Assembly: GCA_964469335.1 (NCBI GenBank)
Contig: CAYXYK010000003.1
Location: 3,315 to 67,314 of the forward strand
Reading direction: 5' to 3'
DNA from: an uncultured Candidatus Saccharibacteria bacterium
Lineage (GTDB): Bacteria > Patescibacteriota > Minisyncoccia > Phycocordibacterales > UBA6899
Length of the DNA stretch: 64,000 nucleotides
In this document: positions 3,111-61,731 of the stretch, in pieces
Layout: every line of letters begins with the position of its first letter
How positions within the stretch are numbered: the first letter of the stretch is position 1
Position numbers and translations under genes: made by a program
Notes under the pieces: generated by a model
The model's database searches: none
The model's input: the letters and a program-made list of their open reading frames with translations, nothing else
What the model was told of the DNA's origin: nothing

Positions 3111-3131
3111 CCTGGCTTGGGTCCATCATCA

Positions 3132-3163
3132 CACTCGAACGAGCGATCGTTCGAGTGTTTTTT
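3132..3163 (+). terminator. rho-independent terminator
   Basis: Perfect 11-bp stem CACTCGAACGA / TCGTTCGAGTG with loop GCGA, followed by TTTTTT. It lies 22 nt after the stop at 3110. Confidence 0.7.
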
Positions 3164-3221
3164 ATTCCCGCGTTCTTTGGTTGTTCTTTTAAACAACGGA
3201 TTGGTTTATAATGGTTGCAGT

Positions 3222-37786: not shown

Positions 37787-37794
37787 GAATGAGA

Positions 37795-39042: not shown

Positions 39043-39086
39043 CGTAGTGTGCGTGTAAAAAATCTATTAAGTTCATTATTTATAAC

Positions 39087-45053: not shown

Positions 45054-45165
45054 ACATCATCCATCAGCACCTCGTCTGCAGCGTTCCGGGGCCCCCGCGC
45101 CTCGTCACCGTACTCAAAGTACGGCTCCGTCGTCGCGCACCCCGCGCCTTGCATCCAAGATACTG

Positions 45166-46155
45166 ATGAATAATGTTTTGAAAAAGAAAGTTTATCGGAC
45201 TGTGATCATCGGGGCAGGACGCATCGCATCAACGTTCGATACACCTTCTTCGCGCCATGTCCTCACGCATGCGCATGCGATCACTGCGAATCCCAACTTC
45301 ACACTCCTCGCGATGAGTGATGTCGACGAGGTCCGCGGAAAGAAAGAGTCGAAGAAATGGGACTGTGTGTTCTTCACTGACACCGAACTGATGCTCGAGA
45401 GCGTGAAGCCCGACGTCGTCGTCATCGCATCTCCAGATTCGCTACATACCGAGCATCTTCTTCTCGCACTCCGGCATGGCCCTAAGCTCATCATTTGCGA
45501 AAAGCCCGTGGTCGCGAAGAAGGCTGAGATGGCAATGCTTGAACAGGCATTCAGAGGGTCAAAGGCCGCAGTGATCGTGAACTTCTCTCGACGTTTCGAT
45601 GCATCGGTGGGCGAGCTGCGTGATCTTCTCAGAAAAGGGAAATACGGGAAGATCATTTCAGCGAACGGGGTTTACACCAATGGAGTATTGCATAACGGCT
45701 CACATCTTTTCGACCTTGCCCGTTTCCTGTTCGGAGAAGTAAAAAGTGTACGCGGATATTCAGGTGTCCCTGATCACAATAAGGGAGATCCGAGTGTCTC
45801 CGGGTTCGCAACATTTCAGGATTGTCCCGAGTTTACCCTTATGACAGGAGACGAACGCCAATATGCGATATTCGAGCTAGAGATCATTACCGAAAAGAAG
45901 CGCATCCGATTCGAGAATTTCGGGCAGGAAATGGTAACACAGGATGTCGTACGCGATCCGATTTTCAAAGGATTCAAGGCCCTGTCAAAGCGAAAGGTGA
46001 CGATGACCAAGTTGGTGGACGCGATGCCGGAACTGTATCGTCACGCAGCAGAAGTCTTAAACAAGAAGAAGTCATCACGATCGTCACTTGCTGACGCGAT
46101 GAAGACCCAGGCGGCATGTTTCCGATTACTCGAAAGTATCACATCAAAAAAATAA
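45166..46155 (+). CDS. Gfo/Idh/MocA-family NAD(P)-dependent oxidoreductase
   Basis: YRTVIIGAGRIAS Rossmann motif and the IICEKPV block. I chose the ATG at 45166. The track start at 45043 adds a low-complexity Pro/Ser/Arg extension. Confidence 0.7.
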   Translation: MNNVLKKKVYRTVIIGAGRIASTFDTPSSRHVLTHAHAITANPNFTLLAMSDVDEVRGKKESKKWDCVFFTDTELMLESVKPDVVVIASPDSLHTEHLLLALRHGPKLIICEKPVVAKKAEMAMLEQAFRGSKAAVIVNFSRRFDASVGELRDLLRKGKYGKIISANGVYTNGVLHNGSHLFDLARFLFGEVKSVRGYSGVPDHNKGDPSVSGFATFQDCPEFTLMTGDERQYAIFELEIITEKKRIRFENFGQEMVTQDVVRDPIFKGFKALSKRKVTMTKLVDAMPELYRHAAEVLNKKKSSRSSLADAMKTQAACFRLLESITSKK

Positions 46156-46156
46156 T

Positions 46157-47467
46157 ATGGCGAAGCTTGCGATCAATGGGGGTGAACCAGTGCGTGCAAA
46201 GGACAGGCTCTTTCCCGCATACAACGGTATCGGTGAAGAAGAGAAAAATGCGGCGATGCGTGTGCTCAACTCCGGAGTGCTGTCGAAATATCTCGGGTGC
46301 TGGGATCCGGACTTCTATGGCGGTGCAGAGGTGCAGGCATTCGAGAAAGAGTGGGCAGTCAGATTCGGAGTGAAGCATGCGGTCGCGATGAACTCGGCGA
46401 CCTCGGGACTCATCGCGGCGGTCGGTGCACTCAATATCGAACCAGGTGACGAGATCATCGTCTCACCGTATTCGATGTGTGCCTCCGCGACCGTGCCACT
46501 CTGGTATGGTGCAGTACCGGTATTCGCGGATATCGAGCCGGAATATTTCTGCCTCGACCCGAAGTCAGTCGAAGCGGCCATCACTCCTCGCACCAAAGCG
46601 ATCATCGTCGTCGATATCTTCGGACAGCCATACGATGCGGATGCGATCAATGCGATCGCGAAGAAACATGGTATTGCGGTCATCGAGGATGCGGCACAGG
46701 TGCCAGGTGCATTCTATAAAGGACGCGCGGCAGGAACACTTGCCGACATCGGCGTGTATTCGCTCAACTACCACAAGCACATTCATACCGGAGAGGGGAC
46801 ACTCGTCGTCACCAATGATGACAAGCTCGCCGAGCGGCTGCAGCTCATCCGCAATCATGCCGAAGCGGTGGTCGAAGATAAGGGAGTATCTGACCTCACC
46901 AACATGGTCGGGCAGAACTATCGGCTCACTGAGATACAGGCGGCGATAGGGCGTGAGCAGCTCAAGAAGCTCGACAAACTGGTGAAGGAGCGTCAGGAGA
47001 ATTGCGCATACATCGCCGAGCACTGTCAGGACATGCCCGGTTTCCGTCCTGCGAAACTTCGCCCTGATTCGACCCATGTGTTCTATCAGCACCCATTCCT
47101 TTTCGATGAAACAGTTGTCGGTGTGTCGCGAGCGAAGTTCGTTGATGCGATCCGTGCTGAACTACCCGCTACACTGCTGCGCGAATCAGACGGTCCGCTG
47201 ATTTCCGGCGGTTACGTGAAGCCCATTTACCTGATGCCGATATTCGCGAAACAGATCGCATTCGGCACGAAGGGATACCCGTTCAAGTCCGAGTTTTACA
47301 AAGGAAAGACAAGGTACGAGAAGGGCATGTGTCCTGTCGTGGAAAATTTGCACGAGAAAGGATACGTTTCCCATGAGATGATGCGCCCAGGTATGACGAA
47401 GAGCGATCTCGATGATGTGATCGCGGCATTTCACAAGGTGTATGAGAATCGTAGTGAGATAATTTAA
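46157..47467 (+). CDS. DegT/DnrJ/EryC1/StrS-family PLP-dependent aminotransferase (long form)
   Basis: The segment SLNYHKHIHTGEG contains the PLP-Lys. The overall layout is DegT-family. Confidence 0.85.
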   Translation: MAKLAINGGEPVRAKDRLFPAYNGIGEEEKNAAMRVLNSGVLSKYLGCWDPDFYGGAEVQAFEKEWAVRFGVKHAVAMNSATSGLIAAVGALNIEPGDEIIVSPYSMCASATVPLWYGAVPVFADIEPEYFCLDPKSVEAAITPRTKAIIVVDIFGQPYDADAINAIAKKHGIAVIEDAAQVPGAFYKGRAAGTLADIGVYSLNYHKHIHTGEGTLVVTNDDKLAERLQLIRNHAEAVVEDKGVSDLTNMVGQNYRLTEIQAAIGREQLKKLDKLVKERQENCAYIAEHCQDMPGFRPAKLRPDSTHVFYQHPFLFDETVVGVSRAKFVDAIRAELPATLLRESDGPLISGGYVKPIYLMPIFAKQIAFGTKGYPFKSEFYKGKTRYEKGMCPVVENLHEKGYVSHEMMRPGMTKSDLDDVIAAFHKVYENRSEII

Positions 47468-48546: not shown

Positions 48547-49212
48547 ATGGCACAAGAAAAAATATTTTTACAGAAAGAGGGAGACGCGTATTTCTCTCGG
48601 AACAAGAGCGATCTGGTCGACGGGAAATTCCCTGACCCGGTACTCTACCTCGTCTCTCAATACGGCATCAAGGCGAAGAAAGTACTCGATATCGGCTGTT
48701 CGAACGGAAGCAAGCTAGCTGCCATACTCGAAGCCTGCGGAGGAAAGGGAACCGGAGTCGAACCCGGGGCAAAAGCCATAGCAGACGGAAAAAAACGTTT
48801 CCCGAAGATCGACTTCAGGCGCGGTGTCGTGTCGGAGCTTCCGGTGAAGGGTACATTCGACCTCGTTACACTCATGTATGTGATGCACTGGGTCTCTCGT
48901 GGGGACCTGCTTAAGGCTGTTTCAGAGATCGATCGGGTGGTCTCGGATGGAGGGTATCTCATCATCGGCGACTTCGACCCGAACACTCCTGCGATGAGGA
49001 GGTATCACCATCTACCCAGTGATGAGGTATACACGTATAAACAAGACTATGCAGCGATATTCGCAGCAACACAGATATACCAACGCATCGCCCAGATGTC
49101 GTTCACGCATGCCGCGAACACCTTTGCTCCGGATCTTCATGGGGGGAACCGCGGAGTCGTGACGCTTTTACGAAAAGACCTCACCGGCAGATATCTTCGT
49201 GAAGATAAATGA
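48547..49212 (+). CDS. class I SAM-dependent methyltransferase (small, resembles nonulosonic-acid-cluster-associated methylases)
   Basis: VLDIGCSNGSKL motif I and LMYVMHWV...DGGYLIIGDFDP. Confidence 0.65.
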   Translation: MAQEKIFLQKEGDAYFSRNKSDLVDGKFPDPVLYLVSQYGIKAKKVLDIGCSNGSKLAAILEACGGKGTGVEPGAKAIADGKKRFPKIDFRRGVVSELPVKGTFDLVTLMYVMHWVSRGDLLKAVSEIDRVVSDGGYLIIGDFDPNTPAMRRYHHLPSDEVYTYKQDYAAIFAATQIYQRIAQMSFTHAANTFAPDLHGGNRGVVTLLRKDLTGRYLREDK

Positions 49213-50114
49213 GTAAAAGCGAACAAAAAGAGACACTCGTTTTCGCGCATGACGCAGGAGGAGCGGAGATCATCGCCGCCTATGTAGCGGCACATCCCGA
49301 GAAACCGTTCGCGTGCTATGTTGCCGGACCAGCAGTAAAAATCTTCGAGCGCCAGCGTGTTCCGGCAAGGAAGATTGATATAGTAAAGCAGGTAATTGAA
49401 GCGACAGTAGAAAAGCAACATGACGCGGCGCTTGTGCTTCTGGGTACCGGCTGGATGACGAAGATGGAAGCGTGGGCGCTTCACGCTGCTAAACAGAGAG
49501 GAATGAAGACCGCGTGCTACCTCGAGTCTTGGGTCAACTATCGTGAACGTTTCGGCTATCCTGAAAAAACATGGAAGGAGCGACTTCCTATCGAGATATG
49601 GGTCGGGGATGCATACGCGCAGACTCTCGCAGAGAAACTCTTTCCAGGTTCGCAGCGAATACGCTATGTACCCAATCAATACTTCAAACAGATCAAATTG
49701 CGCGCAAAGGAGATCCGTAGCACGGTGCCGCGAGGAAAGGGGATACTCTTTCTTTCGGACGCTGTCCCAGGTGTCGAGCGTTCACTCGAGAAGCTACTCC
49801 AATATGTCGCAAAGGAGCTGCCTGAGGAAACAGTACGTGTGAGCTTCCATCCGGCTGACCCGTCTGACCGATATGATGCCGTTATCGAGAAGTATGCAGA
49901 CATGGTTTCAGTGAATAAGGCAAAGGAAAAGGACATTGTCCGCAACCTTCTCTCAGCTCGGCTCGTTGTAGGAGCTGAGACGGTCGCACTCGTGGTTTCG
50001 GCGCTGCTTGGAATGCCGACCGTGTGTATTCTGTCAAAGAAAAGTCAGCGCAAGCTTCCACATCCAGGAATCCTTTATGTCAGAAACATGAAAGAAGCCG
50101 CTAACTTGATTTAA
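49209..50114 (+). CDS. hypothetical GT-B-like protein, candidate PseG/SpsG-like nucleotide-sugar hydrolase
   Basis: The two-lobe pattern (LVFAHDAGGAEII...GILFLSDAV...LLSARLVVGAETVALVVSALLGMPTVCIL) is reminiscent of GT28-C/PseG. Tentative. Confidence 0.35.
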   Translation: MSKSEQKETLVFAHDAGGAEIIAAYVAAHPEKPFACYVAGPAVKIFERQRVPARKIDIVKQVIEATVEKQHDAALVLLGTGWMTKMEAWALHAAKQRGMKTACYLESWVNYRERFGYPEKTWKERLPIEIWVGDAYAQTLAEKLFPGSQRIRYVPNQYFKQIKLRAKEIRSTVPRGKGILFLSDAVPGVERSLEKLLQYVAKELPEETVRVSFHPADPSDRYDAVIEKYADMVSVNKAKEKDIVRNLLSARLVVGAETVALVVSALLGMPTVCILSKKSQRKLPHPGILYVRNMKEAANLI

Positions 50115-50155: not shown

Positions 50156-51172
50156 ATGAAGGAAATCGATATTTTAGCAGGGAAAACCGTCCTCATTACC
50201 GGAGGAACTGGATCATTCGGAAAGAATTTCACCAAACATATTCTTGCCAATTCGAAACTAAAGAAACTCATCATCTTCTCCCGCGATGAGCTCAAGCAGT
50301 CAATGATGGAGAATGAGATCAAGGACGATCGTCTGCGCTTCTTTCTCGGTGACGTGCGTGACCTTCCTCGTCTAGAGCGCGCGTTCCATGGTGTTGATAT
50401 CGTCGTCCATGCTGCGGCACTCAAACAGGTTCCTGCGCTTGAGTATAATCCGTTCGAAGCCGTGAAGACCAACATCATGGGCAGCCAGAACATCATCGAC
50501 GCAGCCATAGATAACAATGTGCAGCAGGTCGTGCTCGTCTCGACAGACAAGGCAGCGATGCCGGTCAATCTCTATGGTTCGACCAAACTCTGTGCGGAGA
50601 AACTGATGACCGCGGCGAACTCATACGGAGGAGGGAACACCCGCTTCTCGGTGGTCCGCTACGGCAATGTAGTTGGTAGTCGCGGCAGTATCGTCGAGAC
50701 ACTAATCAAGAACCGTGATGCGAAGGTGGTGCATGTCACTGATGAGCGAATGACCCGTTTTTGGATCAATCTCGAGCAGGCTTTTGATATCGTCCTCTTC
50801 GCACTCACACATATGGACGGAGGAGAGATATTCATCCCGAAGGCGCCTTCAATGAAACTCACCGACCTATTCGATATCATCGTCCCAGAGGCAAAACGCA
50901 ATATCATCGGCATCCGCCCTGGAGAGAAGCTTCATGAGGTGTTGCTCACCCGAGAAGAAGCCCGCCATGCGGTCGATTTCGGCGACTACTATGTCGTCCT
51001 CCCGGAGAAGCACCCTCATCTCCACGACTCGACCCGTGGGCAAAAGTTCATGAAGCCCGGCAGTGCGCTCGGAGACGACTTCCATTTCTCCAGCGAAACG
51101 AATGAGAAACAGATGTCAAAAGAGCAGCTCCTTACTATTGTAAAGAATATCGAGAAACTAATTACCGGATAA
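50156..51172 (+). CDS. PseB/CapD/FlaA1-family UDP-GlcNAc 4,6-dehydratase
   Basis: LAGKTVLITGGTGSFGKNF, then IFSRDE...DVRD, VVHAAALK and YGSTK are hallmarks of the Polysacc_synt_2 (PseB/LegB) family. Confidence 0.85.
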   Translation: MKEIDILAGKTVLITGGTGSFGKNFTKHILANSKLKKLIIFSRDELKQSMMENEIKDDRLRFFLGDVRDLPRLERAFHGVDIVVHAAALKQVPALEYNPFEAVKTNIMGSQNIIDAAIDNNVQQVVLVSTDKAAMPVNLYGSTKLCAEKLMTAANSYGGGNTRFSVVRYGNVVGSRGSIVETLIKNRDAKVVHVTDERMTRFWINLEQAFDIVLFALTHMDGGEIFIPKAPSMKLTDLFDIIVPEAKRNIIGIRPGEKLHEVLLTREEARHAVDFGDYYVVLPEKHPHLHDSTRGQKFMKPGSALGDDFHFSSETNEKQMSKEQLLTIVKNIEKLITG

Positions 51173-51223: not shown

Positions 51224-52168
51224 ATGGAAAGCGAAACAAGAAAAAAAATTGAAAAGTATCCGACGCTTTGTAAGACATTCTTATACATCGAAAAGAATTC
51301 TGTTTTTTATAAGAATATCTTTGAGGCAAGCGTAACTATTCCGATTGACTACAGTACCGCAGAGCGTATTTGCTCCGACGCACTTCTCATGTGTTCCGGA
51401 GACTGGGAGGAATACACCAAGAGATTAAGAAATCTTTTTGAAATCAATTACGAGTTTCTTCAGTTACAGGATTTTCTCGAAAAGAATCGAAGATACCTTT
51501 ATACTTCATTCAAGGAGGTCGAAGAGAATGTGTTCAAAAAAGAGCGCACGAGTGGACTAGAAGGAGTCGAGTACCTCTGGGGAGTTTACTTCACAAACGT
51601 TTTTTGGGTGACACACCATCTGGCATTCATGTTCTTTATCGAGGAATTTGCGCGAAAATCACCCCTAAATGGAGTATGTCTTGAAGCGCCCACCGGGTCA
51701 GGAATCTTCCTTTCAAATTTTCTTGATGAACGTCCTCTGTGGAATGCTGAGAGCGTTGATATCAGCGAAACATCCAAGAGCTTTGCTACGAATCTTCACA
51801 ACATAAAACACACATCAGAACATGTCCGATTGTTGAATCAAGACATCTATAAATACACCAGCGATAAAAAATTCGACCGCATCATCAGTATGGAGTTCAT
51901 CGAGCACGTCGAAGATCCTGTTTCAATACTGAAAATATTGAAAAATTTACTTGCAGATGATGGTAAAATCTTCCTCACTACCGTTGCGTGGGCTGCGTTC
52001 ATAGATCATATCTATCTATACAAAAGTGCCGATGAGATCAGGGCTCATATTGCTGAAAGCGGGCTTCGTATCGAAAAGGAGTTGGTACAGAATATTTTCC
52101 CTAAGGATAAGGGGCGAACAGAAAACCGCGAAGTCGCGCTGAACTACTCTGCGATTCTTGTAAAATAA
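51224..52168 (+). CDS. class I SAM-dependent methyltransferase (C-terminal MT domain)
   Basis: VCLEAPTGSGIF motif I and FDRIISMEFIEHVEDP...DGKIFLTT. It is the first gene of the low-GC (about 40%) segment. Confidence 0.6.
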   Translation: MESETRKKIEKYPTLCKTFLYIEKNSVFYKNIFEASVTIPIDYSTAERICSDALLMCSGDWEEYTKRLRNLFEINYEFLQLQDFLEKNRRYLYTSFKEVEENVFKKERTSGLEGVEYLWGVYFTNVFWVTHHLAFMFFIEEFARKSPLNGVCLEAPTGSGIFLSNFLDERPLWNAESVDISETSKSFATNLHNIKHTSEHVRLLNQDIYKYTSDKKFDRIISMEFIEHVEDPVSILKILKNLLADDGKIFLTTVAWAAFIDHIYLYKSADEIRAHIAESGLRIEKELVQNIFPKDKGRTENREVALNYSAILVK

Positions 52169-52181
52169 TTCGATTGTAATT

Positions 52182-52958
52182 ATGACAAAAGAGTTGGTGG
52201 ACCTAAAAAGTGCCTATACAGCAGCGGGACTTGTAAAAGGAGATACTGTTTTTATTCATGCTAATCTCCTCTCATTCGGACTGGTGAGTCATGGCAAAAA
52301 AGGATTCGTTGAGTATTTCCTCTCACCACTTCTCGATATCATCGGCGATACGGGAACAATCGCCGTGCTTACATATACGTTTAGTTATGCACCTGGAAAA
52401 ATACCTTTCGTATATGAGACGAGTCCATCAGAGGCAGGGATGTTCACTGAACATATTCGCAATATGGCTGGTGCAATCAGGTCGTTTCACCCGCTCTGTT
52501 CAGTCGTTGCATTTGGTCCTCAAGCTGCAGCAATCGCTGACGTAAGCACTCGTTCGGCATTTGGATGGGGGTCTCCTTTCCATGTGCTACATCAACTAAA
52601 GGCAAAATGTCTGTATATCGGAATGACGGCGGGGCAGTCGTGCACATTCCTTCATTATGTCGAGCAAATGTATGGCGTTTCCCACTGCTACAACAAAGCA
52701 TTTTTCCATCCTGCGTACAGAGATGGTCAACTGGTCGAAGGTCCGTTTCTAGTCTATCTAAGAAACCGCAAGTCAGATGAGTATGACTTTTCTTCGTTCG
52801 AAAAAGAGATGAAAAAAAGGGGTCATATTTCAGAACAAAAGCATCGTGGAGGAATGATACAAACAATGAACTTCACGGACGTGTTCGCTGTAGGAATGGA
52901 AATGCTTCAGAACGATACGTGTGCATTTTTAAAGTCACCTTTTTATGTCACAGAATGA
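52182..52958 (+). CDS. AAC(3)-family (Antibiotic_NAT, PF02522) N-acyltransferase
   Basis: GDTVFIHANLLSFG...GDTGTIAVLTYT matches the conserved N-terminal blocks of aminoglycoside-3-N-acetyltransferase-like enzymes. Confidence 0.65.
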   Translation: MTKELVDLKSAYTAAGLVKGDTVFIHANLLSFGLVSHGKKGFVEYFLSPLLDIIGDTGTIAVLTYTFSYAPGKIPFVYETSPSEAGMFTEHIRNMAGAIRSFHPLCSVVAFGPQAAAIADVSTRSAFGWGSPFHVLHQLKAKCLYIGMTAGQSCTFLHYVEQMYGVSHCYNKAFFHPAYRDGQLVEGPFLVYLRNRKSDEYDFSSFEKEMKKRGHISEQKHRGGMIQTMNFTDVFAVGMEMLQNDTCAFLKSPFYVTE

Positions 52959-52977
52959 AGTAGATATGACACAAAAC

Positions 52978-53328
52978 ATGAACATAGATGGCGTGGGGAT
53001 CGATATCGTAGAAGTATCTCGATTCGAAGAGTTGATTGGGAAAGAAGAGCCACATCTTATCTCAAAACTGTTCACACCCCATGAACAAGAGTACTGTTTT
53101 TCCTTCAAAAATCCGGCGGTTCATTTCGCGGGGACATTCGCTGCAAAGGAGGCTGCGCACAAAGCCTGTGGGGATCGTTCTGTTGCACTCGAATCAATAG
53201 AAGTGCGTAGACTCGAAACAGGGAAGCCCGAAATCTGGATCAAGGGAAGCCGCTCGAATTCATTACTCGTCTCGATATCACATACAGATGATACTGCCTG
53301 TGCGATATCATACTTTCGTTCCATATGA
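52978..53328 (+). CDS. acpS: holo-ACP synthase (4'-phosphopantetheinyl transferase, AcpS-type)
   Basis: MNIDGVGIDIVEVSRF...FTPHEQEYC...KEAAHKA layout is typical of AcpS. The start is either 52966 or 52978. Confidence 0.7.
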   Translation: MNIDGVGIDIVEVSRFEELIGKEEPHLISKLFTPHEQEYCFSFKNPAVHFAGTFAAKEAAHKACGDRSVALESIEVRRLETGKPEIWIKGSRSNSLLVSISHTDDTACAISYFRSI

Positions 53329-54362
53329 AAAAATGTATTGTTCTTGATCTTGATAATACCCTCTGGGGAGGTGTCGTCGGAGAAGACGGCGTAAACGGTG
53401 TTGCGCTCTCACTTTCTGGCCCGGGCGCTGACTTTGTCGCCTTTCAGCAAGCTCTCCTCGATCTGTACAATCGGGGCATCATTCTTGCAATTAACAGCGC
53501 AAATAATCCAAATGATGCGCTTTCTGTCATTCGGAATAACCCAAACATGATTCTGAAGGAACAACATTTTGCCGCAATGCGTATCAACTGGGATGATAAA
53601 GTCTCAAACATAAAAGACATAGCAAAAGAGCTGAACATCGGTCTTGACTCCATGGTATTCCTCGATGATAGCGCAATTAACCGTGAGGCGATGAGAAGTT
53701 TTCTCCCCAAAGTTGAGACTCCTGAATTGCCAATCGACCCAAAAGAATATACGACTTTTCTCCTCGGACTTCCGTATTTTGTGACGAACGCCGTTACTGA
53801 CGAGGATAAAATGAGAGGGAGCATGTATGTGACCGAAAGGCTTCGTCTGGAGACAGAGAAGTCATTTGCGAATAGAGCGGACTTTTTGAAGAGCCTAGAT
53901 ATAAAAGTGAAGATATTCAATGATCCGGGCATCGCTTTGAGTCGGCTTGCTCAAATGACCGAAAAAACCAATCAATTCAATACCAATAAGATGCCCATGA
54001 ATGAAGACGAAGTTCGCGAATTCGCCGAAGACGCCCAGAAGGAAGTATTCTATGCTTCTGCCTCCGATCGATTCGGCGACCATGGTATCATTGCATTAGC
54101 GTTCATCAGTAAAGATATGAGCAATTGGCAAATCGATCCGATGCTGATGAGCTGTAGGGTGATCGGGCGCGGGATCGAAGATGCGTTTCTGTGGGGAATC
54201 GCCAAGGAGGCGAAGAAACAAGGAGCAGAAACAATCTCGGCAAATTTTGTCCAAAGTGAGAAGAATTTGCCGGCGAGAACATTCATTGAGCGCTGTTTTG
54301 GTGAAAAACGAAAAACGGAAGTTATCAATATTACTAAGCCTGATTGGATCACAATCATATGA
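53325..54362 (+). CDS. FkbH-like HAD-superfamily (subfamily IIIC) protein
   Basis: CIVLDLDNTLWGGVVGEDG is the FkbH/HAD-IIIC signature. In polyketide pathways FkbH-like enzymes load a glycolytic 3-carbon unit onto an ACP. Confidence 0.75.
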   Translation: MKKCIVLDLDNTLWGGVVGEDGVNGVALSLSGPGADFVAFQQALLDLYNRGIILAINSANNPNDALSVIRNNPNMILKEQHFAAMRINWDDKVSNIKDIAKELNIGLDSMVFLDDSAINREAMRSFLPKVETPELPIDPKEYTTFLLGLPYFVTNAVTDEDKMRGSMYVTERLRLETEKSFANRADFLKSLDIKVKIFNDPGIALSRLAQMTEKTNQFNTNKMPMNEDEVREFAEDAQKEVFYASASDRFGDHGIIALAFISKDMSNWQIDPMLMSCRVIGRGIEDAFLWGIAKEAKKQGAETISANFVQSEKNLPARTFIERCFGEKRKTEVINITKPDWITII

Positions 54363-54583
54363 AAACATTCAACAAGATAGTCTCAGAGCATTTTACTCTT
54401 GCAGAGAACGAAGTGACCGATGCACTCACTATGCATGATATACCAGGATGGGATTCAATGAATTTCCTACTTCTTATCGCGGACATTGAGAAAGAATTCG
54501 GTATGACGTTCACAATGGATGAAGTGCTCTCGTTCAATTCACTTGGCGATATTAGGAAGGTTCTCGAAGCGAAGGGGAAGTAA
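54359..54583 (+). CDS. acyl carrier protein
   Basis: About 75 aa with the GWDSMNFLLL motif (DSx, the phosphopantetheine-attachment serine). The start overlaps the upstream stop (ATGA). Confidence 0.75.
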   Translation: MKTFNKIVSEHFTLAENEVTDALTMHDIPGWDSMNFLLLIADIEKEFGMTFTMDEVLSFNSLGDIRKVLEAKGK

Positions 54584-54584
54584 C

Positions 54585-55013
54585 ATGAGTGATGTCATCC
54601 CCAAAGATAAGTCTATCCATGAGCTTAATCTTGGTGATTCGGTTTCTTTCGAGAAGATAATTACCGACGAAGACGTTTCTGTTTTCTCGAAATTGAGTGG
54701 AGACTTCAACCCCCTCCATACAGATGCTTCATACGCAGAGTTAACTCCCTTCAGAGAAAGGGTGGTTTTTGGGATGTTGCTCGGGGCATATGTCTCGCGA
54801 CTGATCGGGATGGAACTTCCAGGCACTCGTGCACTCATTTTGAAAGAATCACTTGAATTCAAAAAACCTGTGCATATTGGAGATACGATCACTGTTACTG
54901 GGAAGATCGTTTCGAAGAGTGAGTCAGTCGGACTCATTGAAGTGGGAGTATCGATTACTGTCAAAGGTGAGATAACCACTCAGGGCTCAGTTCATGTTCG
55001 AGTAAGATCATAA
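54585..55013 (+). CDS. MaoC-like (hot-dog fold) dehydratase
   Basis: SGDFNPLHTD is the MaoC dehydratase signature. GGGGAAG Shine-Dalgarno lies before the ATG. Confidence 0.75.
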   Translation: MSDVIPKDKSIHELNLGDSVSFEKIITDEDVSVFSKLSGDFNPLHTDASYAELTPFRERVVFGMLLGAYVSRLIGMELPGTRALILKESLEFKKPVHIGDTITVTGKIVSKSESVGLIEVGVSITVKGEITTQGSVHVRVRS

Positions 55014-55016
55014 CCC

Positions 55017-55733
55017 ATGACAGAAAACAACAATAAACCTCTTTTAATCATCTCTGGCGGAACCGGTTATCTGGGTAGCATTATATCCTCACGATTTATT
55101 GAACATGGCTGGAAAGTTGCAACTCTCGGACGTACCCCAACCGCTGATTCCGCTTTGTCGTACTTATGTGATGTTACCGATGAAGAGAGCATAAAAAGTA
55201 CCATCCAGCAGATCGCAGAAACACATGGACGAATTGATGCATGCATTCATGCCGCGACGCTGCCCGTTGACGCAAAGACACCACTGCTTTCCTCCTCGGT
55301 CGAATCATTCGACGCGCAGGTCGCAGTTGCAGCACGTGGAGCATTCTTGTTGGCAAAGAGCGTGGTCCCTCTCATGGCTCATGACTCTGCGTTTATCGGA
55401 GTCACTTCTGCGCTCATCGAACCAAATGTAGTTTTGTCTCCAACGGGAGCTTATATATCTGCAAAGTATGCATTGCGCGGGTTTCTCCGGTCACTTGCAG
55501 CAGAGGTGGCAAGTAAGGGGGTGCGTGTTTACGCTGTCGCTCCGGGTTTTCTTCCCGGAGGGCTGAATAAGGGTCTTCCTGATGCAATAATCAAGTTTCT
55601 AGGCAAAAAAAGTGGTGCAGGGGACTCAACCCCTGAAGATGTTGCTGACGTCGTTTTAAAGATATGTACTGAACCAGCATTCTACGCATCGGGCTCTTCG
55701 ATTTCCATACCAGGCGGGATTTCTCCTCTCTAG
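55017..55733 (+). CDS. SDR-family oxidoreductase (3-oxoacyl-ACP reductase-like)
   Basis: LLIISGGTGYLGSII cofactor motif and YISAKYALRGF (YxxxK). Confidence 0.75.
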   Translation: MTENNNKPLLIISGGTGYLGSIISSRFIEHGWKVATLGRTPTADSALSYLCDVTDEESIKSTIQQIAETHGRIDACIHAATLPVDAKTPLLSSSVESFDAQVAVAARGAFLLAKSVVPLMAHDSAFIGVTSALIEPNVVLSPTGAYISAKYALRGFLRSLAAEVASKGVRVYAVAPGFLPGGLNKGLPDAIIKFLGKKSGAGDSTPEDVADVVLKICTEPAFYASGSSISIPGGISPL

Positions 55734-55928: not shown

Positions 55929-57299
55929 ATGAAAAAAATAATAATTGGGTTTCTAAGTTTTTTGTTCATAATGTTACTTTCCCCAGTTCATGTTTTTGCA
56001 GCTATTACTTCTGACACCGGCGCAGCGTACACTGCATGTGTTAGTGGAACAACGTGTTCCTATTCGTATACAGTGGGAGCAATAACGGACCCTCTGCTTG
56101 TGTGCAGTAATAGCAACTTCAATGACGCTGATCCCGGTGCTGTGACCATGACCTATGGTGGCGTGAGCATGACACAAATTGGATCCAACCAATCCAAAAC
56201 AAGTGTCCCTGGGACATCCTATATGCAGACCTTCTACCTTGCGGGGGCAGCAACAGGAACACATACGCTTGCTATCACCACTACGAATTCTCAGAGCAAC
56301 GGTTTTTATGCACACTGTGTCTCTTACGGCGGAGTCAATCAAAGCACACCAATTGAAGCATACACTCAGCAGGTTGATGTGAATGTGGCAGTGAACACTG
56401 ATATTCCTGCTACTGTCACTACTCTTACAGATGGTGCATGGGTGGGGATGATGGCAACAGATGTCTATGCTCGCACTGTCGTAGCTGGAGCCAGTACGAC
56501 CAAAATCACAGGCTGCTCAGATGCGCAGGCCGACTGTTTTGACACAAATGGACCTGTTAGCCCGGCAGGGAATAGAACACTCAATGTGAAATACACAAAT
56601 GGCACCCTTGACTCCTTCATAATCACGGCGTACGCGATCAAGCCAGTGGAAGTTTATCGTGACACCGGCGCAGCGTACACTGCATGTGTTAGTGGAACAA
56701 CGTGTTCCTATTCGTATACAGTGGGAGCAATAACGGACCCTCTGCTTGTGTGCAGTAATAGCAACTTCAATGACGCTGATCCCGGTGCTGTGACCATGAC
56801 CTATGGTGGCGTGAGCATGACACAAATTGGATCCAACCAATCCAAAACAAGTGTCCCTGGGACATCCTATATGCAGACCTTCTACCTTGCGGGGGCAGCA
56901 ACAGGAACACATACGCTTGCTATCACCACTACGAATTCTCAGAGCAACGGTTTTTATGCACACTGTGTCTCTTACGGCGGAGTCAATCAAAGCACACCAA
57001 TTGAAGCATACACTCAGCAGGTTGATGTGAATGTGGCAGTGAACACTGATATTCCTGCTACTGTCACTACTCTTACAGATGGTGCATGGGTGGGGATGAT
57101 GGCAACAGATGTCTATGCTCGCACTGTCGTAGCTGGAGCCAGTACGACCAAAATCACAGGCTGCTCAGATGCGCAGGCCGACTGTTTTGACACAAATGGA
57201 CCTGTTAGCCCGGCAGGGAATAGAACACTCAATGTGAAATACACAAATGGCACCCTTGACTCCTTCATAATCACGGCGTACGCGATCAAGCCAGCCTAG
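55929..57299 (+). CDS. secreted protein composed of two identical 216-aa tandem modules
   Basis: Signal peptide MKKIIIGFLSFLFIMLLSPVHVFA. The module DTGAAYTACVSGTTCSY...ITAYAIKP occurs twice, rich in Thr/Ser/Gly/Cys. There is an AT-rich promoter region upstream. Confidence 0.7.
   Translation: MKKIIIGFLSFLFIMLLSPVHVFAAITSDTGAAYTACVSGTTCSYSYTVGAITDPLLVCSNSNFNDADPGAVTMTYGGVSMTQIGSNQSKTSVPGTSYMQTFYLAGAATGTHTLAITTTNSQSNGFYAHCVSYGGVNQSTPIEAYTQQVDVNVAVNTDIPATVTTLTDGAWVGMMATDVYARTVVAGASTTKITGCSDAQADCFDTNGPVSPAGNRTLNVKYTNGTLDSFIITAYAIKPVEVYRDTGAAYTACVSGTTCSYSYTVGAITDPLLVCSNSNFNDADPGAVTMTYGGVSMTQIGSNQSKTSVPGTSYMQTFYLAGAATGTHTLAITTTNSQSNGFYAHCVSYGGVNQSTPIEAYTQQVDVNVAVNTDIPATVTTLTDGAWVGMMATDVYARTVVAGASTTKITGCSDAQADCFDTNGPVSPAGNRTLNVKYTNGTLDSFIITAYAIKPA
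56013..57294. repeat. perfect tandem direct repeat, 2 x about 634 bp at 648-bp period, inside the CDS
   Basis: 56013-56646 is identical to 56661-57294. Both + and - strand spurious ORFs recur with identical translations at a 648-bp offset (56179 vs 56827; 55974 vs about 56622). Confidence 0.9.
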
Positions 57300-57443: not shown

Positions 57444-58511
57444 ATGACAACGCGCTTCTCCAAAACATTCAAAGTCGGCGACCGACTCGTCGGCGAGGGC
57501 CAGCCGGCACTCGTCATTGCTGACCTCGGCGGTAATTTCGACGGAAGTATCGAAAAGGCAAAGAAATTGGCAAAGCAGGTGAAGGATGCAGGCGGCGATG
57601 TGGTGAAGATCCAGAGTTTCCTCGCTGACAAGATCGTTTCCGGAAAAGGCTTCGCTTCGATGAAGCTCAAGGGCGTGCACGGCAGCTGGGGAAAGCCTGT
57701 CGAAGAAGTGTTCAAGTCAGCTGAGTTCCCACGCGAGTGGCACAAGGAGTTCTTCGATTACTGTAAGGAGATAGGCATTCTCGCCACTTCGAGTCCGTAT
57801 GATTATGAAGCAGTAGATATTTTGGACGAGGCAGGTGTGCCGTTCTACAAGATCGGTTCCGGTGACATCACCTGGCTCGAGATGATCGAGTACATCGCAA
57901 AGAAAGGGAAGCCCGTCGTCCTCGCGACCGGCGCAGCGACCCTTTCAGAAGTCGATGAGGCGCTCAAGGTGATCGAGTCGACCGGCAACAAGGAGATCGC
58001 ACTTCTTCAGTGCATCACCAACTATCCGTCCAAGGTCGAGAGCGCGAACATCAAAGTAATGGATACCTACAAGACTGCCTTCGACATCATGGTAGGGTAC
58101 TCTGATCACACCTACTCTGACACTGTCGTACTTGGTGCGGTCGCTCGCGGAGCAAAGGTGATCGAGAAACATTTCACCGACAGCAAGAAGAACGCAGGCC
58201 CTGATCATCCCCACTCGATGGAACCGCAGCAGTTCGCCGATATGATGGTACGTATCCGTGACATGGAGGCCGCTCTTGGATCGAGCAGGAAAGAGGTCGT
58301 CGCAGAAGAATCGGAGACTGTCGTCGTCCAGCGCCGCTCCCTCTATGCGTCGGCGGATATCAAGAAAGGCGAGAAGGTCGGTGTCGAGCGTATCATCGAG
58401 CTTCGTCCTGCGCTCGGGATATATCCGAAATATAAGAAGCAGGTAGGAGGACTCACCGCGGCGAAGGATATTAAGAAAGGGGAGGCTATCTACTGGGACT
58501 CCTTAGCATAA
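57444..58511 (+). CDS. NeuB-family nonulosonic-acid synthase (sialic/pseudaminic/legionaminic acid synthase-like)
   Basis: N-terminal TIM-barrel block LVIADLGGNFDGSIEKAKKLAKQVKDAGGDVVKIQSF. The C-terminal SAF domain is ...RRSLYASADIKKGEKV. AAAGGA Shine-Dalgarno precedes the ATG. Confidence 0.85.
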   Translation: MTTRFSKTFKVGDRLVGEGQPALVIADLGGNFDGSIEKAKKLAKQVKDAGGDVVKIQSFLADKIVSGKGFASMKLKGVHGSWGKPVEEVFKSAEFPREWHKEFFDYCKEIGILATSSPYDYEAVDILDEAGVPFYKIGSGDITWLEMIEYIAKKGKPVVLATGAATLSEVDEALKVIESTGNKEIALLQCITNYPSKVESANIKVMDTYKTAFDIMVGYSDHTYSDTVVLGAVARGAKVIEKHFTDSKKNAGPDHPHSMEPQQFADMMVRIRDMEAALGSSRKEVVAEESETVVVQRRSLYASADIKKGEKVGVERIIELRPALGIYPKYKKQVGGLTAAKDIKKGEAIYWDSLA

Positions 58512-60263: not shown

Positions 60264-61592
60264 ATGAAAAAAACACGACAACTCAAGACAGGAAAGTCGC
60301 AACGACTTTGGAAAGAAGCAAAGAAGGTCATCCCCGGCGGCTCACAGCTGCTTTCGAAGCGTGCTGAGATGGCACTTCCCGAACTCTGGCCGGCATATTT
60401 CTCCAAAGCAAAAGGAGTCGAGGTGACAGACCTCGATGGGAACACGTATATCGATATGACCCATATGTCGGTCGGCTCCTGTACGCTCGGCTATCGTGAC
60501 CCCGACGTGAATAGTGCGGTGAAAAAAGCAATCGATAAGGGCACGATGACAACACTCAATGCACCAGAGGAAGTAGAGCTTGCGAGCGTGCTCCTGAAAC
60601 TCCATCCATGGGCTGGCATGGTCCGCTACGCACGTGCAGGAGGCGAAGCGATGTCGATAGCGATCCGTATCGCACGCGCAGCCTCAGGGAGAGATAAGGT
60701 TGCCTTCTGTGGCTATCATGGCTGGCATGATTGGTATCTTTCGACCAATCTCTCGTCGGCCAAGAATCTCGACGGGCAGCACCTGTCAGGGCTATCGACT
60801 GTCGGAGTGCCGAAACACCTTGCTGATACTGCACTCCCGTTCCACTACAACCGTATCGACGAACTGGAAGAGATACTCCGGCAGAACGATGTCGGTGTCA
60901 TAGTGATGGAGACCATCCGTCACCAGGAACCGAAAGATGACTTTCTTCAAAAAGTCCGCGCGCTCGCGACCAAGCATAATTGCGTGCTCGTCTTTGACGA
61001 GATATCCGCGGGATTCCGACTTACACTCGGCGGAGCACACCTACTCTATGGCGTGGACCCTGATATCGCAGTGTTCAGTAAAGCGATATCGAACGGCTAC
61101 CCGATGTCAGCGATCATCGGTAGGAGCGAGGTGATGGATGTAGCGCAGGAGAGTTTCATCTCGAGTACTTACTGGACCGAGCGGGTCGGGCTCGTCGCCG
61201 CACTTGCGACCATCGACAAGATGAAAAAAAAGAATGTCTCCCGCCACCTCGAAAAGATCGGAACACTCATCGAGAAAGGCTGGATCGCCGCAGCAAAGAA
61301 ACATGGTCTCACTATCGAAACTGAAGGACCGATGTGTCTTGTGTCGCTGGCATTCAAATATCCGAACGCGCAGGAAGTGAAGACGCTGTTCACTCAGGAG
61401 ATGCTCCGCAGGGGATTTCTCGCAGGTCTTTCGGTGTATGTGAGTTACGCGCACAAGGAACTCCATGTGAAAAAATATATGAAAGCGATCGATGAGGTCT
61501 TTGCCATCCTTGCGCTAGCTATCGCAGAAGGGAACGTCAAGGAGCTGCTTGAGGGGCCTGTGGCACATTCTGGCTTCGCTCGCCTTACTTAA
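60264..61592 (+). CDS. class-III PLP-dependent aminotransferase (glutamate-1-semialdehyde aminomutase-like)
   Basis: VLVFDEISAGFR...GVDPDIAVFSKAISNGYPMSAIIG contains the class-III PLP-Lys block. Confidence 0.8.
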   Translation: MKKTRQLKTGKSQRLWKEAKKVIPGGSQLLSKRAEMALPELWPAYFSKAKGVEVTDLDGNTYIDMTHMSVGSCTLGYRDPDVNSAVKKAIDKGTMTTLNAPEEVELASVLLKLHPWAGMVRYARAGGEAMSIAIRIARAASGRDKVAFCGYHGWHDWYLSTNLSSAKNLDGQHLSGLSTVGVPKHLADTALPFHYNRIDELEEILRQNDVGVIVMETIRHQEPKDDFLQKVRALATKHNCVLVFDEISAGFRLTLGGAHLLYGVDPDIAVFSKAISNGYPMSAIIGRSEVMDVAQESFISSTYWTERVGLVAALATIDKMKKKNVSRHLEKIGTLIEKGWIAAAKKHGLTIETEGPMCLVSLAFKYPNAQEVKTLFTQEMLRRGFLAGLSVYVSYAHKELHVKKYMKAIDEVFAILALAIAEGNVKELLEGPVAHSGFARLT

Positions 61593-61716
61593 GATTTTAT
61601 TTTTGGCGCACTACTCGTCTTTCCTTTTTCAGGTTCGGAGACAGTATATGCGAATACAGCCTCACGAACACTGAAAAAGTCCAACACTTCGTATTGCATC
61701 CAAAAAATAAAATCTT
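61591..61716 (+). repeat. nested inverted-repeat element (16/17-bp AT-rich outer arms plus 9-bp inner arms) in intergenic region
   Basis: AAGATTTTATTTTTGG at 61591-61606 pairs with CCAAAAAATAAAATCTT at 61700-61716. Inner CCTTTTTCAG at 61623-61632 pairs with CTGAAAAAG at 61671-61679. Confidence 0.4.
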
Positions 61717-61731
61717 TGCTATTATTCGTCC

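Follow-up and report, generated by a model that had tools for sequence, protein, structure and literature searches.

The window analysed here, a 64-kb stretch of contig CAYXYK010000003.1, is a glycan-biosynthesis region coding for glycosyltransferases, many methyltransferases, a radical S-adenosylmethionine (SAM) enzyme, an asparagine-synthase homologue, a formyltransferase/aminotransferase/C-methyltransferase set, a Wzx-type flippase and a Capsule_synth protein. Seven plus-strand genes are packed tightly at 51224-55733, between pseB and the gene of a NeuB/PseI-family synthase. They code, in this order, for a methyltransferase, an AAC(3)-fold N-acyltransferase, a phosphopantetheinyl transferase (AcpS), FkbH, an acyl carrier protein (ACP), a MaoC-type dehydratase and a short-chain dehydrogenase/reductase (SDR) (Table 1). 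The intergenic gaps measure 13, 7, -4, -4, 1 and 3 bp in the 5' to 3' direction, and with spacings of only -4 to +13 bp the seven genes are translationally coupled and form a single operon. Promoter-like and terminator-like sites around the cassette are no more numerous than expected from shuffled sequence and mark no operon boundaries. It is likely that this cassette is a free-standing miniature assembly line in which a three-carbon (C3) acyl group is built on a private ACP and passed to an amino sugar, a proposal that rests on gene content, conserved motifs and comparison of loci.

Family assignments come from Pfam and NCBIfam profile searches against curated cut-offs. An initial annotation of the window, made from its letters, had counted six genes in the interval, which contains seven. 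All the genes that it claimed are found there on the plus strand, the profile search run on each open reading frame (ORF) returned the families that it had named, and the motifs CIVLDLDNTLWGG, WDSM and DFNPLHTD that it had quoted are present.

FkbH is a stand-alone protein with a HAD-IIIC phosphatase half followed by a carboxyl-terminal acyl-transfer half. The motifs D8-L-D10-N-T and S276-C277-R278 are invariant in 10 homologues with identity down to 28%, and Cys277 is presumably the acyl-S-enzyme residue, as in OzmB-type enzymes. FkbH homologues are abundant, with more than 7000 at E < 1e-20. The ACP falls under every AcpP equivalog cut-off and is therefore not a housekeeping ACP. Its motif is of the form xWDS(L/M), common also to the carrier ORFs of the related loci L066 and L055 (loci are designated by L numbers) and to the carboxyl-terminal ACP domain of a fusion protein from Maritalea. 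AcpS scores marginally under the acpS equivalog TIGR00516 (59.6 against 59.8); its longest ORF begins at 52945, and the 120-aa call used here is the one adopted in independent assemblies.

The MaoC protein has the catalytic motif D40-F-N-P-L-H45 (D-x-N-P-x-H), and its nearest solved relatives are (R)-specific enoyl-CoA hydratases (PhaJ; 5cpg and 1iq6, E ~1e-19). The SDR features G14-G-T-G-Y-L-G20 and Y146-I-S-A-K150, the Y-x3-K spacing being that of ketoreductases and not that of FabI. It is FabG-like yet below all equivalog cut-offs (86.6 against 297.75 for FabG). The first 137 residues of the methyltransferase match no known family. The protein gives a weak NCBIfam match to BioC, a malonyl-ACP O-methyltransferase.

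Table 1. Genes of the cassette and of the surrounding sugar cluster, in window coordinates. Scores are in bits, followed where given by the family cut-off.
Feature	Position	Strand	Evidence and remarks
Two CTP_transf_3 cytidylyltransferases	start 44295 and 61732		Pfam
DegT/PseC-like sugar aminotransferase	46157-47467	+	TIGR03588 E 6e-63, 213 bits, below 423.5
Conserved 301-aa protein, unknown family	49209-50114	+	usually directly upstream of or beside the AAC(3)-like gene in relatives
PseB, inverting UDP-GlcNAc 4,6-dehydratase	50156-51172	+	TIGR03589 equivalog, 437.9 bits vs 407.75
SAM methyltransferase, 314 aa	51224-52168	+	Methyltransf_23 E 3.7e-14; class I domain ~138-261
AAC(3)-fold (Antibiotic_NAT) N-acyltransferase, 258 aa	52182-52958	+	PF02522 E 1.6e-30, 106.8 bits vs 25
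AcpS-type 4'-phosphopantetheinyl transferase, 120 aa	52966-53328	+	PF01648 E 1.8e-15; TIGR00556 71 bits vs 45.35
Stand-alone FkbH, 345 aa	53325-54362	+	TIGR01686 296.5 bits vs 146.65, profile positions 3-317 of 323
Acyl carrier protein, 74 aa	54359-54583	+	PF00550 PP-binding 27.1 bits vs 20.8; Ser33 in GWDSM
MaoC/PhaJ-type single hot-dog dehydratase, 142 aa	54585-55013	+	PF01575 E 4.3e-18, 65.5 bits vs 27
Classical SDR ketoreductase, 238 aa	55017-55733	+	adh_short_C2 E 5e-35; adh_short E 1e-22, 80.9 bits vs 26.6
Secreted repeat protein, 456 aa	55929-57299	+	signal peptide, then two near-identical 216-aa repeats
NeuB/PseI-family nonulosonic acid synthase	57444-58511	+	TIGR03569 312.9 and TIGR03586 304.3 bits (cut-off 340), both sub-cut-off; PF03102 NeuB + SAF

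The second gene of the cassette codes for the putative off-loading enzyme. Its AlphaFold2 model (predicted local distance difference test score, pLDDT, 93.7) finds its best Foldseek matches in AAC(3)-Xa, -IIIa and -IVa, BA2930, FrbF and YokD, with template modelling (TM) scores of 0.75-0.81. It has the same fold as AAC(3) enzymes, FrbF, YokD and BA2930 and the same catalytic His/Glu motif, here T155-F-L-H158-Y-V-E161 (conserved as T-x-L-H-x-x-E, with H158 invariant in the subfamily), and would, like them, transfer an acyl group to the amine of a sugar-like substrate. The substrate of FrbF is a CMP-linked amine. The window protein differs from all of these by its low identity to them (~20-23%), its location in a biosynthetic operon, its fusion to FkbH in some genomes and its proposed donor, acyl-ACP and not acetyl-coenzyme A (CoA).

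The initial annotation had considered that this protein might be a genuine aminoglycoside resistance enzyme. Its scores are far below every NCBIfam resistance cut-off: 79.6 bits against 270 for NF033082, with the AAC(3)-II, -IV, -VIII and -VIa models also far under theirs. A true resistance gene is rejected on these scores together with the synteny of the cassette and the fusion to FkbH. The protein belongs to a tight subfamily with 50-71% identity and names from the candidate phyla radiation (CPR, Patescibacteria). Relatives with at least 50% identity and enough flanking sequence all adjoin the cassette, and those at 29-34% identity are still found beside FkbH and MaoC, in many cases together with NeuB.

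A marine clade of AAC(3)-like proteins with 35-40% identity (L048-L056; e.g. L055, 3006-5735) has as neighbours a DltA-like enzyme that adenylates amino acids (TIGR01733, 316.9 bits) and a small carrier protein with the WDS motif, often with genes for a DUF4910 protein and a formyltransferase nearby. This neighbourhood suggests that pairing with a carrier protein is recurrent in this branch of the fold, and in the marine clade it is a possible route to N-aminoacyl (e.g. D-alanyl) amino sugars.

Related loci were retrieved in two ways. A scan from the FkbH side, limited to one genome per species, yielded 23 loci, of which the closest are all metagenome-assembled genomes (MAGs) of Patescibacteria, followed by Nitrospirota and others. 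A metagenome scan from the AAC(3) side with an alignment of the subfamily yielded 35 loci. When the window proteins were compared by tblastn to the FkbH-retrieved loci, the order AcpS-FkbH-ACP-MaoC-SDR was found to be kept in about a dozen CPR loci, and the Nitrospirota version to be FkbH-ACP-MaoC-SDR. Look-ups of identical proteins supplied more examples. AcpS is part of the Patescibacteria-type cassettes (L007-L019, L030, L031, L037-L039, L046, L075), while the cassettes of Nitrospirota, Maritalea and Rahnella lack it. When the ORFs of the loci are clustered, the families with the widest distribution are those of FkbH, SDR, MaoC, ACP, AcpS and a PseB-like dehydratase; no partner of FkbH and ACP is more constant than MaoC (17/23 loci) and SDR (20/23). 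The self-contained ACP module claimed at the outset is thus borne out by conservation of the AcpS-FkbH-ACP-MaoC-SDR order in about 30 loci, to which fusions add. The combination of genes, of which the initial annotation knew no characterised example, is not special to this genome; it is widespread and occurs also in cultured bacteria.

The conserved core is found in two architectures. In the first, an AAC(3)-like gene adjoins the core, surrounded by genes for PseB, a DegT aminotransferase, NeuB, DUF218 and proteins of no known family like those at 49209 and 59608. In the second, the core is followed by a DltB-like membrane-bound O-acyltransferase (MBOAT; TIGR04091, E 1.7e-50) and a conserved ~385-aa protein, and the nonulosonic-acid genes are mostly missing. 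Among the 31 loci with both FkbH and MaoC, 18 have the AAC(3)-like gene, nine the MBOAT gene, four neither and none both; the corresponding numbers for the FkbH-retrieved loci alone are seven, nine, four and none. PseB or NeuB is present in 12 of the 18 AAC(3)-type loci and NeuB in one of the nine MBOAT-type loci. That the AAC(3)-like and MBOAT genes are never found together is the pattern expected for alternative outlets of one donor. Homologues of the methyltransferase lie between FkbH and ACP in the MBOAT-type loci L018 and L019 (50-53% identity), and a homologue with 78% identity leads the same seven-gene block in L030. Since they lie inside acyl-building blocks, this gene travels with the acyl genes and not with the sugar genes.

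The window itself has no MBOAT homologue, which occurs only in sister loci. MBOAT-type loci are L008, L009, L013 (12465-15045), L015-L019, L025 and L075. By their gene content they look like a Dlt-type system that would place a lactyl-type group, and not D-alanine, on an extracytoplasmic polymer. On Sinorhizobium meliloti pSymB (L072, 5043-10077) an MBOAT gene is followed by a gene of no known family, ACP and FkbH (628 aa), without MaoC and SDR.

Gene fusions tie the same parts together. MaoC and SDR form a single 358-aa protein in L064-L066. In the cultured alphaproteobacterium Maritalea myrionectae (HL2708#5), plasmid pHL2708Y3 codes for an 819-aa protein that joins Antibiotic_NAT (26-240) to FkbH (467-787), and the next gene for a 489-aa protein composed of MaoC (21-109), SDR (156-340) and ACP (GWDSL at 443-447). 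Both genes lie between pseB and a DUF4910 gene followed by a NeuB-family gene, with sialyltransferase and cytidylyltransferase genes across the plasmid origin. In Rahnella sikkimica an Antibiotic_NAT-FkbH fusion precedes MaoC and SDR, and the cluster has no nonulosonic-acid genes. The fusions thus link the AAC(3)-like domain with the loader, and the carrier protein with both dehydratase and reductase. From synteny, from the mutual exclusion of the AAC(3)-like and MBOAT genes, from the FkbH fusions, from the carrier-protein pairing seen in the marine clade and from the phosphopantetheine arm shared by CoA and holo-ACP, we infer that the AAC(3)-like enzyme uses an acyl-ACP donor.

The Rahnella plasmid (L074, 7189-14339) carries genes for a HAD hydrolase, the fusion protein, MaoC, SDR, an ATP-grasp protein and an MFS transporter, and ahead of these lie genes for an aminotransferase and a CDP-alcohol phosphatidyltransferase; outside a nonulosonic-acid cluster, the module perhaps serves small-molecule biosynthesis. 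Many FkbH homologues from outside the CPR (L020, L022-L024, L066, L071, L072) are 540-630 aa long, with an amino-terminal extension of ~200-260 aa that matches no Pfam family. In the fusion proteins of Maritalea and Rahnella the same extension separates the AAC(3)-like part from the FkbH part. The sole solved relative, 3slr (BF1531), spans an amino-terminal domain and the HAD half.

The functions of MaoC, SDR, FkbH and ACP also make up a polyketide synthase (PKS) loading module. A trans-acyltransferase (trans-AT) PKS of Streptomyces anulatus starts with MaoC_dehydratas (9-99), adh_short (288-472), FkbH (716-1034) and PP-binding (1137-1202) domains followed by a ketosynthase; its FkbH domain shares 37% identity (over 325 aa) with the FkbH of the window, and its MaoC domain 34% with the MaoC of the window. 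The lactate/pyruvate loading modules of trans-AT PKSs (bryostatin BryA, FR901464, lankacidin type) have the same dehydratase (DH), ketoreductase (KR), FkbH and ACP, all four of which are adjacent genes in the window. Unlike these modules, the cassette consists of separate small proteins with their own AcpS, in a CPR sugar cluster. The PKS module feeds a ketosynthase, while the cassette is proposed to off-load onto an amine through the AAC(3)-fold enzyme instead; no ketosynthase was found in the cassette, in the window ORFs scanned or in the related sugar-cluster loci. The DH*/KR* pair of FR901464 reportedly (in work ascribed to He et al., 2014) turns glyceryl-ACP into lactyl-ACP via pyruvoyl-ACP, and the same route has been proposed for the D-lactate starter of bryostatin BryA. 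Pyruvoyl- or lactoyl-ACP starters come from 1,3-bisphosphoglycerate according to the lankacidin literature (PMC6162330).

A route can be proposed on this basis. AcpS would add phosphopantetheine to Ser33 of the ACP. FkbH would remove the 3-phosphate of 1,3-bisphosphoglycerate and transfer the glyceryl unit via Cys277 onto holo-ACP. MaoC would take out the C3 hydroxyl and the C2 proton of glyceryl-ACP to yield enol-pyruvoyl-ACP, which would tautomerise to pyruvoyl-ACP, and the SDR (Y146/K150) would use NAD(P)H to reduce the 2-oxo group and give lactyl-ACP (2-hydroxypropanoyl-ACP). The methyltransferase would methylate an ACP-bound intermediate, at a guess the 2-hydroxyl, yielding 2-methoxypropanoyl. 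The AAC(3)-fold enzyme (His158/Glu161) would finally N-acylate the amine of a nucleotide sugar with acyl-S-ACP in place of acetyl-CoA, so that the ketosynthase of a PKS loading module would be replaced by an amine-directed off-loading enzyme. The passage from glyceryl-S-ACP through pyruvoyl-S-ACP to lactyl-S-ACP is one that we infer by analogy with the loading modules.

The building of a C3 acyl group on ACP from a glycerate-derived unit, as first suggested, is supported by the gene content of the related loci. Glyceroyl, lactoyl and hydroxypropanoyl-like groups had been offered as options; because MaoC and SDR are present, a lactyl group or a methylated derivative is likelier and glyceroyl less so. 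The lack of a ketosynthase or malonyl transferase in any related sugar locus makes a chain of four carbons or more unlikely. The exact acyl group and the acceptor nitrogen are proposed more tentatively, with a chance that at best comes close to even.

The initial annotation had the cassette embedded in a nonulosonic-acid cluster, and this is confirmed by the PseB equivalog and the genes for the PseC-like aminotransferase, the NeuB/PseI-like synthase and the two cytidylyltransferases around it. The PseC-like aminotransferase is 70-73% identical to the product of the gene at the same position in L030, L031, L037 and L038. The canonical set for pseudaminic acid (Pse) is incomplete: PseB passes its cut-off (438 against 408), while PseC (213 against 423.5), PseI (304 against 340) and PseF (25.7 against 205.7) do not. 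Further genes of the cluster (44295-46155 and 60264-62493) code for a Gfo/Idh/MocA oxidoreductase and a class III (GSA-aminomutase-like) aminotransferase; a DUF218 gene and two small genes of no known family are conserved in sister loci. By its gene complement the pathway is a divergent, Pse-like one, and the sugar made here is probably not plain Pse.

The 301-aa protein encoded upstream of pseB has homologues (40-46% identity) that adjoin the AAC(3)-like gene in L014, L031, L036-L039, L042 and L047 and lie elsewhere within the same cluster in L030 and L041. It has no Pfam or NCBIfam match, a profile of nine sequences finds no PDB sequence, and its single-sequence AlphaFold2 model has a pLDDT of 37. 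That it performs the missing PseG-type step is speculative.

Elsewhere in the window, genes at 36689-39899 on the minus strand code for a DegT-type aminotransferase (with 36% identity to the PseC-like one encoded from 46157), a Methyltransf_14/13 sugar C-methyltransferase and a formyltransferase, which suggests that the same locus makes an N-formylated, C-methylated amino sugar. A 561-aa protein (33879-35564, plus strand) is an unusual fusion of the amino-terminal and central domains of a UDP-glucose/GDP-mannose dehydrogenase with a carboxyl-terminal class I methyltransferase. At the left edge (3117-5273, plus strand) is found a VirD4/TraG-like coupling-protein homologue with weak DUF87, T4SS-DNA_transf and TraG-D_C matches.

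The host is, as judged from linked genes, a CPR bacterium. Proteins identical to those of the window are found on several Joint Genome Institute (JGI) metagenome contigs, one of which runs on into MurB and SecA. This SecA, ~4 kb past the window end, is 78-79% identical to that of Candidatus Lloydbacteria, and the other named matches are to Paceibacteria or Patescibacteria. Fatty-acid synthesis is held to be generally missing in CPR bacteria, which makes it unlikely that the private ACP and AcpS are borrowed from lipid metabolism.

The acceptor is most likely, though not securely, the 4-amino group that PseB and the PseC-like aminotransferase produce and that is later N7 of the nonulosonic acid. 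Among the window ORFs scanned, no GNAT, left-handed-helix acetyltransferase, amidase or DUF4910 protein was detected, and tblastn with the DUF4910 protein of L031 gave no match in the window. With neither a GNAT of the PseH type nor a de-N-acetylase there, the AAC(3)-like enzyme would, on the simplest reading, stand in for PseH.

The situation is different in other loci. Twelve related loci, as well as Maritalea, pair the AAC(3)-like gene with one for a DUF4910/DUF2172/HTH_47 protein. DUF4910/DUF2172 proteins are presumably aminopeptidase-like, and we take Cj1295 of Campylobacter jejuni to be a DUF4910 member. The aminopeptidase-like Cj1295 is needed for Pse carrying di-O-methylglyceroyl at N5 and was proposed to remove the N5 acetyl group (PMC3068675). 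Given that role in N5 acylation, DUF4910-bearing loci may re-acylate N5.

A number of observations weigh against the proposal that an acyl-ACP assembly line serves one amine of a Pse-like sugar. Every characterised Antibiotic_NAT enzyme in the PDB uses acetyl-CoA, and none is known with acyl-ACP. In the close relatives L014 and L037-L039 the AAC(3)-like gene is accompanied by that of a GNAT, with no recognisable de-N-acetylase, and a model with one amine and a replaced PseH does not explain them. The initial idea that the AAC(3)-like enzyme replaces the acetyl-CoA-dependent PseH step is in line with a window without PseH and with the coupling to the cassette, which supports off-loading, and leaves these relatives unexplained. 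Hidden Markov model searches detected neither PseG nor a GNAT-type PseH in the cluster, in which PseC and PseI are sub-cut-off, and the second aminotransferase, the Gfo/Idh/MocA oxidoreductase and the second cytidylyltransferase hint at extra steps. The target of the methyltransferase is a guess between O-methylation of the 2-hydroxyl and C-methylation of the 2-oxo intermediate. BLASTP (E < 1e-3) detects no similarity between the window SDR and the SDR domain of either fusion, that of Maritalea or that of Streptomyces, so that its equivalence to them is one of domain family and position. The counts of loci are biased, 35 having been retrieved with the AAC(3)-like protein as query.

The acyl-ACP donor has to be weighed against the reading in which the AAC(3)-like protein is simply the acetyl-CoA-dependent N-acetyltransferase of the cluster, a non-homologous replacement of PseH, and the cassette product goes elsewhere, for example to O-acylation of the finished glycan by another transferase. 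The solved members of the fold all bind CoA or acetyl-CoA, the window ORFs scanned offer no other N-acetyltransferase for the 4-amino sugar, and in nine loci the same cassette does feed another outlet, the DltB-like MBOAT. The covalent union of the AAC(3)-like domain with FkbH in Maritalea and Rahnella, and a linkage to FkbH that persists down to 30% identity, are nevertheless difficult to reconcile with a function unconnected to the cassette. L031 and L037-L039 have a GNAT too and would not need the AAC(3)-like protein for acetylation; the AAC(3) and MBOAT types never co-occur, and the window holds no other candidate outlet. A plain acetyltransferase is for these reasons considered unlikely.

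If the acyl-ACP donor is accepted, its acyl group could still be of the glyceroyl type (glyceroyl or O-methylglyceroyl) and not lactyl, MaoC and SDR acting to epimerise by oxidation and reduction or to edit. FkbH by itself gives glyceryl-ACP, three methyltransferase genes lie near the cassette (47477, 48547 and 51224), and N-glyceroyl and di-O-methylglyceroyl Pse are documented (PMC5378307, PMC3068675). This does not sit well with a MaoC/PhaJ enzyme whose intact D-x-N-P-x-H marks it as a dehydratase, nor with MaoC and SDR being constant partners (17/23 and 20/23 loci) fused to each other and to ACP; MaoC-SDR-FkbH-ACP is the type of PKS loading module reported for lactate/pyruvate starters (PMC6162330). 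A glyceroyl-type product is given a slim chance, roughly one in eight. A link to fatty-acid or 3-hydroxyacyl metabolism (e.g. 3-hydroxybutanoyl), with FkbH a mere phosphatase and the AAC(3)-like protein a true resistance enzyme, is very improbable. FabG and AcpP are the best NCBIfam names for the SDR and the ACP, at sub-threshold scores, and 3-hydroxybutanoyl is regarded as the commonest non-acetyl N-acyl group on these sugars. Against it, FkbH scores at twice its family cut-off with an invariant Cys277, the AAC(3)-like protein reaches 79.6 where the resistance family asks for 270 and shows synteny with FkbH or fusion to it, and the host belongs to a group held to lack fatty-acid synthesis. 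Neither the cassette nor the ~30 related loci have a ketosynthase, a malonyl-CoA:ACP transacylase or an enoyl reductase. The fatty-acid pathway is rejected on this absence and the rival largely refuted by synteny; the doubt raised at the outset, that the ACP and FkbH might be parts of a fatty-acid or polyketide pathway, is settled likewise, with no ketosynthase or malonyl transferase nearby and a CPR host.

The base composition of the cassette sets it apart from its surroundings. Its GC content is 44.2%, compared to 50.9% in the window, and it is the deepest 4.5-kb trough; 2% of equal-sized segments have a GC content as low, with the window minimum at 51501. The drop announced by the initial annotation (about 40% against about 50%) is real, at a cassette value of 44.2% and not ~40%. 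GC at third codon positions (GC3) is 0.40-0.48 in the cassette and 0.52-0.68 in the flanking genes, and the low-GC3 block runs on through 55929-57299 (0.449), which places the right-hand break at ~57.3 kb. Of the breaks anticipated at ~51.2 and 55.8 kb, a discontinuity exists and the right edge is the one displaced. A second, smaller trough (0.44-0.46) at 42000-43500 lies over the Capsule_synth-family gene (42691-44199, minus strand), whose product is 52% identical to its L030 counterpart and 44% to one in a Parcubacteria MAG (L019).

Low GC as an intrinsic property of the cassette genes is rejected, given that the cassettes of 22 other loci match their flanks: the difference averages +0.002 in hosts that span 35% to 60% GC, and a dip is seen only in the window (-6.7 points) and in L010 (-8.2). 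The nearest block is that of L030, with the same seven genes (FkbH 75%, methyltransferase 78% and AAC(3)-like protein 67% identity), in a sugar cluster of ~46% GC with a different arrangement. The block probably came by horizontal transfer from a lower-GC relative. Acquisition as a unit, proposed initially, is supported by the dip and by the L030 block, which fall short of proof. The cassette has no blastn match to plasmids, and there are no tRNA genes in the window.

The 456-aa secreted repeat protein encoded downstream may have arrived together with the cassette. Its gene is a tandem repeat with a period of 648 bp that includes a perfect register of 300 nt (100% identical). The product is called in five independent assemblies, which makes an assembly artefact unlikely. 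It has no Pfam or NCBIfam family above threshold and no homologue in the related loci.

The products expected from such a cassette are known from bacterial glycans. An N-[(R)-2-hydroxypropanoyl] group at N5 of Pse was reported, as the first of its kind, in the capsule of Psychrobacter marincola KMM 277T, whose sugar is Pse5(R-Lac)7Ac (PMC7281560), and N-lactyl groups are known, though rare, on Rha4N, Fuc3N and Pse, with T. fructosivorans and S. litorea named as producers (PMC9912281). N-glyceroyl Pse occurs in Tannerella forsythia, where its genetic basis was termed 'a major challenge' (PMC5378307). Literature searches found no report on the genes for the N-lactyl Pse of P. marincola and, in full texts, no paper characterising the present gene set.

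One of the closest known systems is the C. jejuni flagellin locus, which yields Pse5(2,3-di-O-methylglyceroyl)7Ac and has the 'N-acetyltransferase' Cj1296/7 beside Cj1295 (PMC3068675); it includes the FkbH-domain gene cj1302 (PMC7099621). Compared by description and not by sequence, Cj1295-Cj1304 of strain NCTC 11168 is likewise a nonulosonic-acid locus with an FkbH-domain gene and an 'N-acetyltransferase'. It differs in that the acyl group is placed on N5 after a presumed de-N-acetylation and keeps both glycerate oxygens, whereas the window has no DUF4910 homologue. We take the C. jejuni locus to include ACP and SAM methyltransferase genes, and to our knowledge it has neither MaoC nor SDR. 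Its di-O-methylglyceroyl route was flagged by genetics, and no reconstitution was found in the literature.

Other systems share parts of the scheme. In the Dlt system (DltA, DltC, DltB, DltD) a small dedicated carrier is likewise loaded in the cytoplasm and its acyl group handed to a surface polymer, an arrangement approached by the nine related loci in which the core is followed by the DltB-like MBOAT and its ~385-aa partner. The window differs from it in having a soluble AAC(3)-fold outlet and not an MBOAT, a loader, FkbH, that would use a glycolytic intermediate without the ATP-dependent adenylation of DltA, and a proposed hydroxy acid in place of D-alanine. The methoxymalonyl-ACP pathway FkbG-K combines FkbH, a discrete ACP, tailoring enzymes and an O-methyltransferase that act on an ACP-tethered C3 unit. 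The Vibrio cholerae O1 genes RfbK-O for perosamine N-tetronate provide an ACP-based donor for amino-sugar N-acylation in the O-antigen. In these two systems tailoring is by FkbK/FkbI dehydrogenases or LuxC/E-like enzymes, where the cassette has MaoC and SDR, and the transferase family differs. The ingredients are thus each known in kind: FkbH loading, DH/KR conversion to lactyl-ACP, carrier-dependent surface acylation and the AAC(3) fold. What appears undescribed is their assembly into a PKS loading module split into separate proteins, with an outlet that is either of the AAC(3) fold or a DltB-like MBOAT, in nonulosonic-acid clusters and common in CPR bacteria.

A broader hypothesis, to which we give somewhat less than an even chance, is that AAC(3)-fold proteins outside the resistance clades are a widespread and so far unrecognised class of carrier-protein-dependent N-acyltransferases that off-load FkbH-DH-KR (lactyl/glyceroyl) or DltA-like (aminoacyl) lines onto nucleotide-sugar amines. 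They would be a general basis of exotic N-acyl groups on Pse and legionaminic acid (Leg). CPR bacteria would keep ACP and AcpS solely for surface decoration, through the AAC(3)-like enzyme (cytoplasmic N-acylation) or the DltB-like MBOAT (a 'lactyl-Dlt' outside the membrane).

The enzymes that add non-acetyl N-acyl groups to sialic-acid-like sugars are largely unknown, and these groups shape antigenicity, phage susceptibility and immune recognition. If the proposal is correct, the cassette would provide a testable genetic basis for the rare N-lactyl and N-glyceroyl sugars, consisting of about six small soluble proteins and a glycolytic intermediate. A genomic rule would follow, in which FkbH and ACP alone predict glyceroyl, and the addition of MaoC and SDR predicts lactyl. 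The AAC(3) fold would extend to acyl-ACP donors, which bears on the origin of aminoglycoside-resistance enzymes. The polyketide loading module and the glycan-tailoring module would be one kit, found in fused and unfused forms. It would also bring to light the chemistry of surface glycans in CPR bacteria, a group about whose biology almost nothing is known, with a fused version carried by the cultured M. myrionectae.

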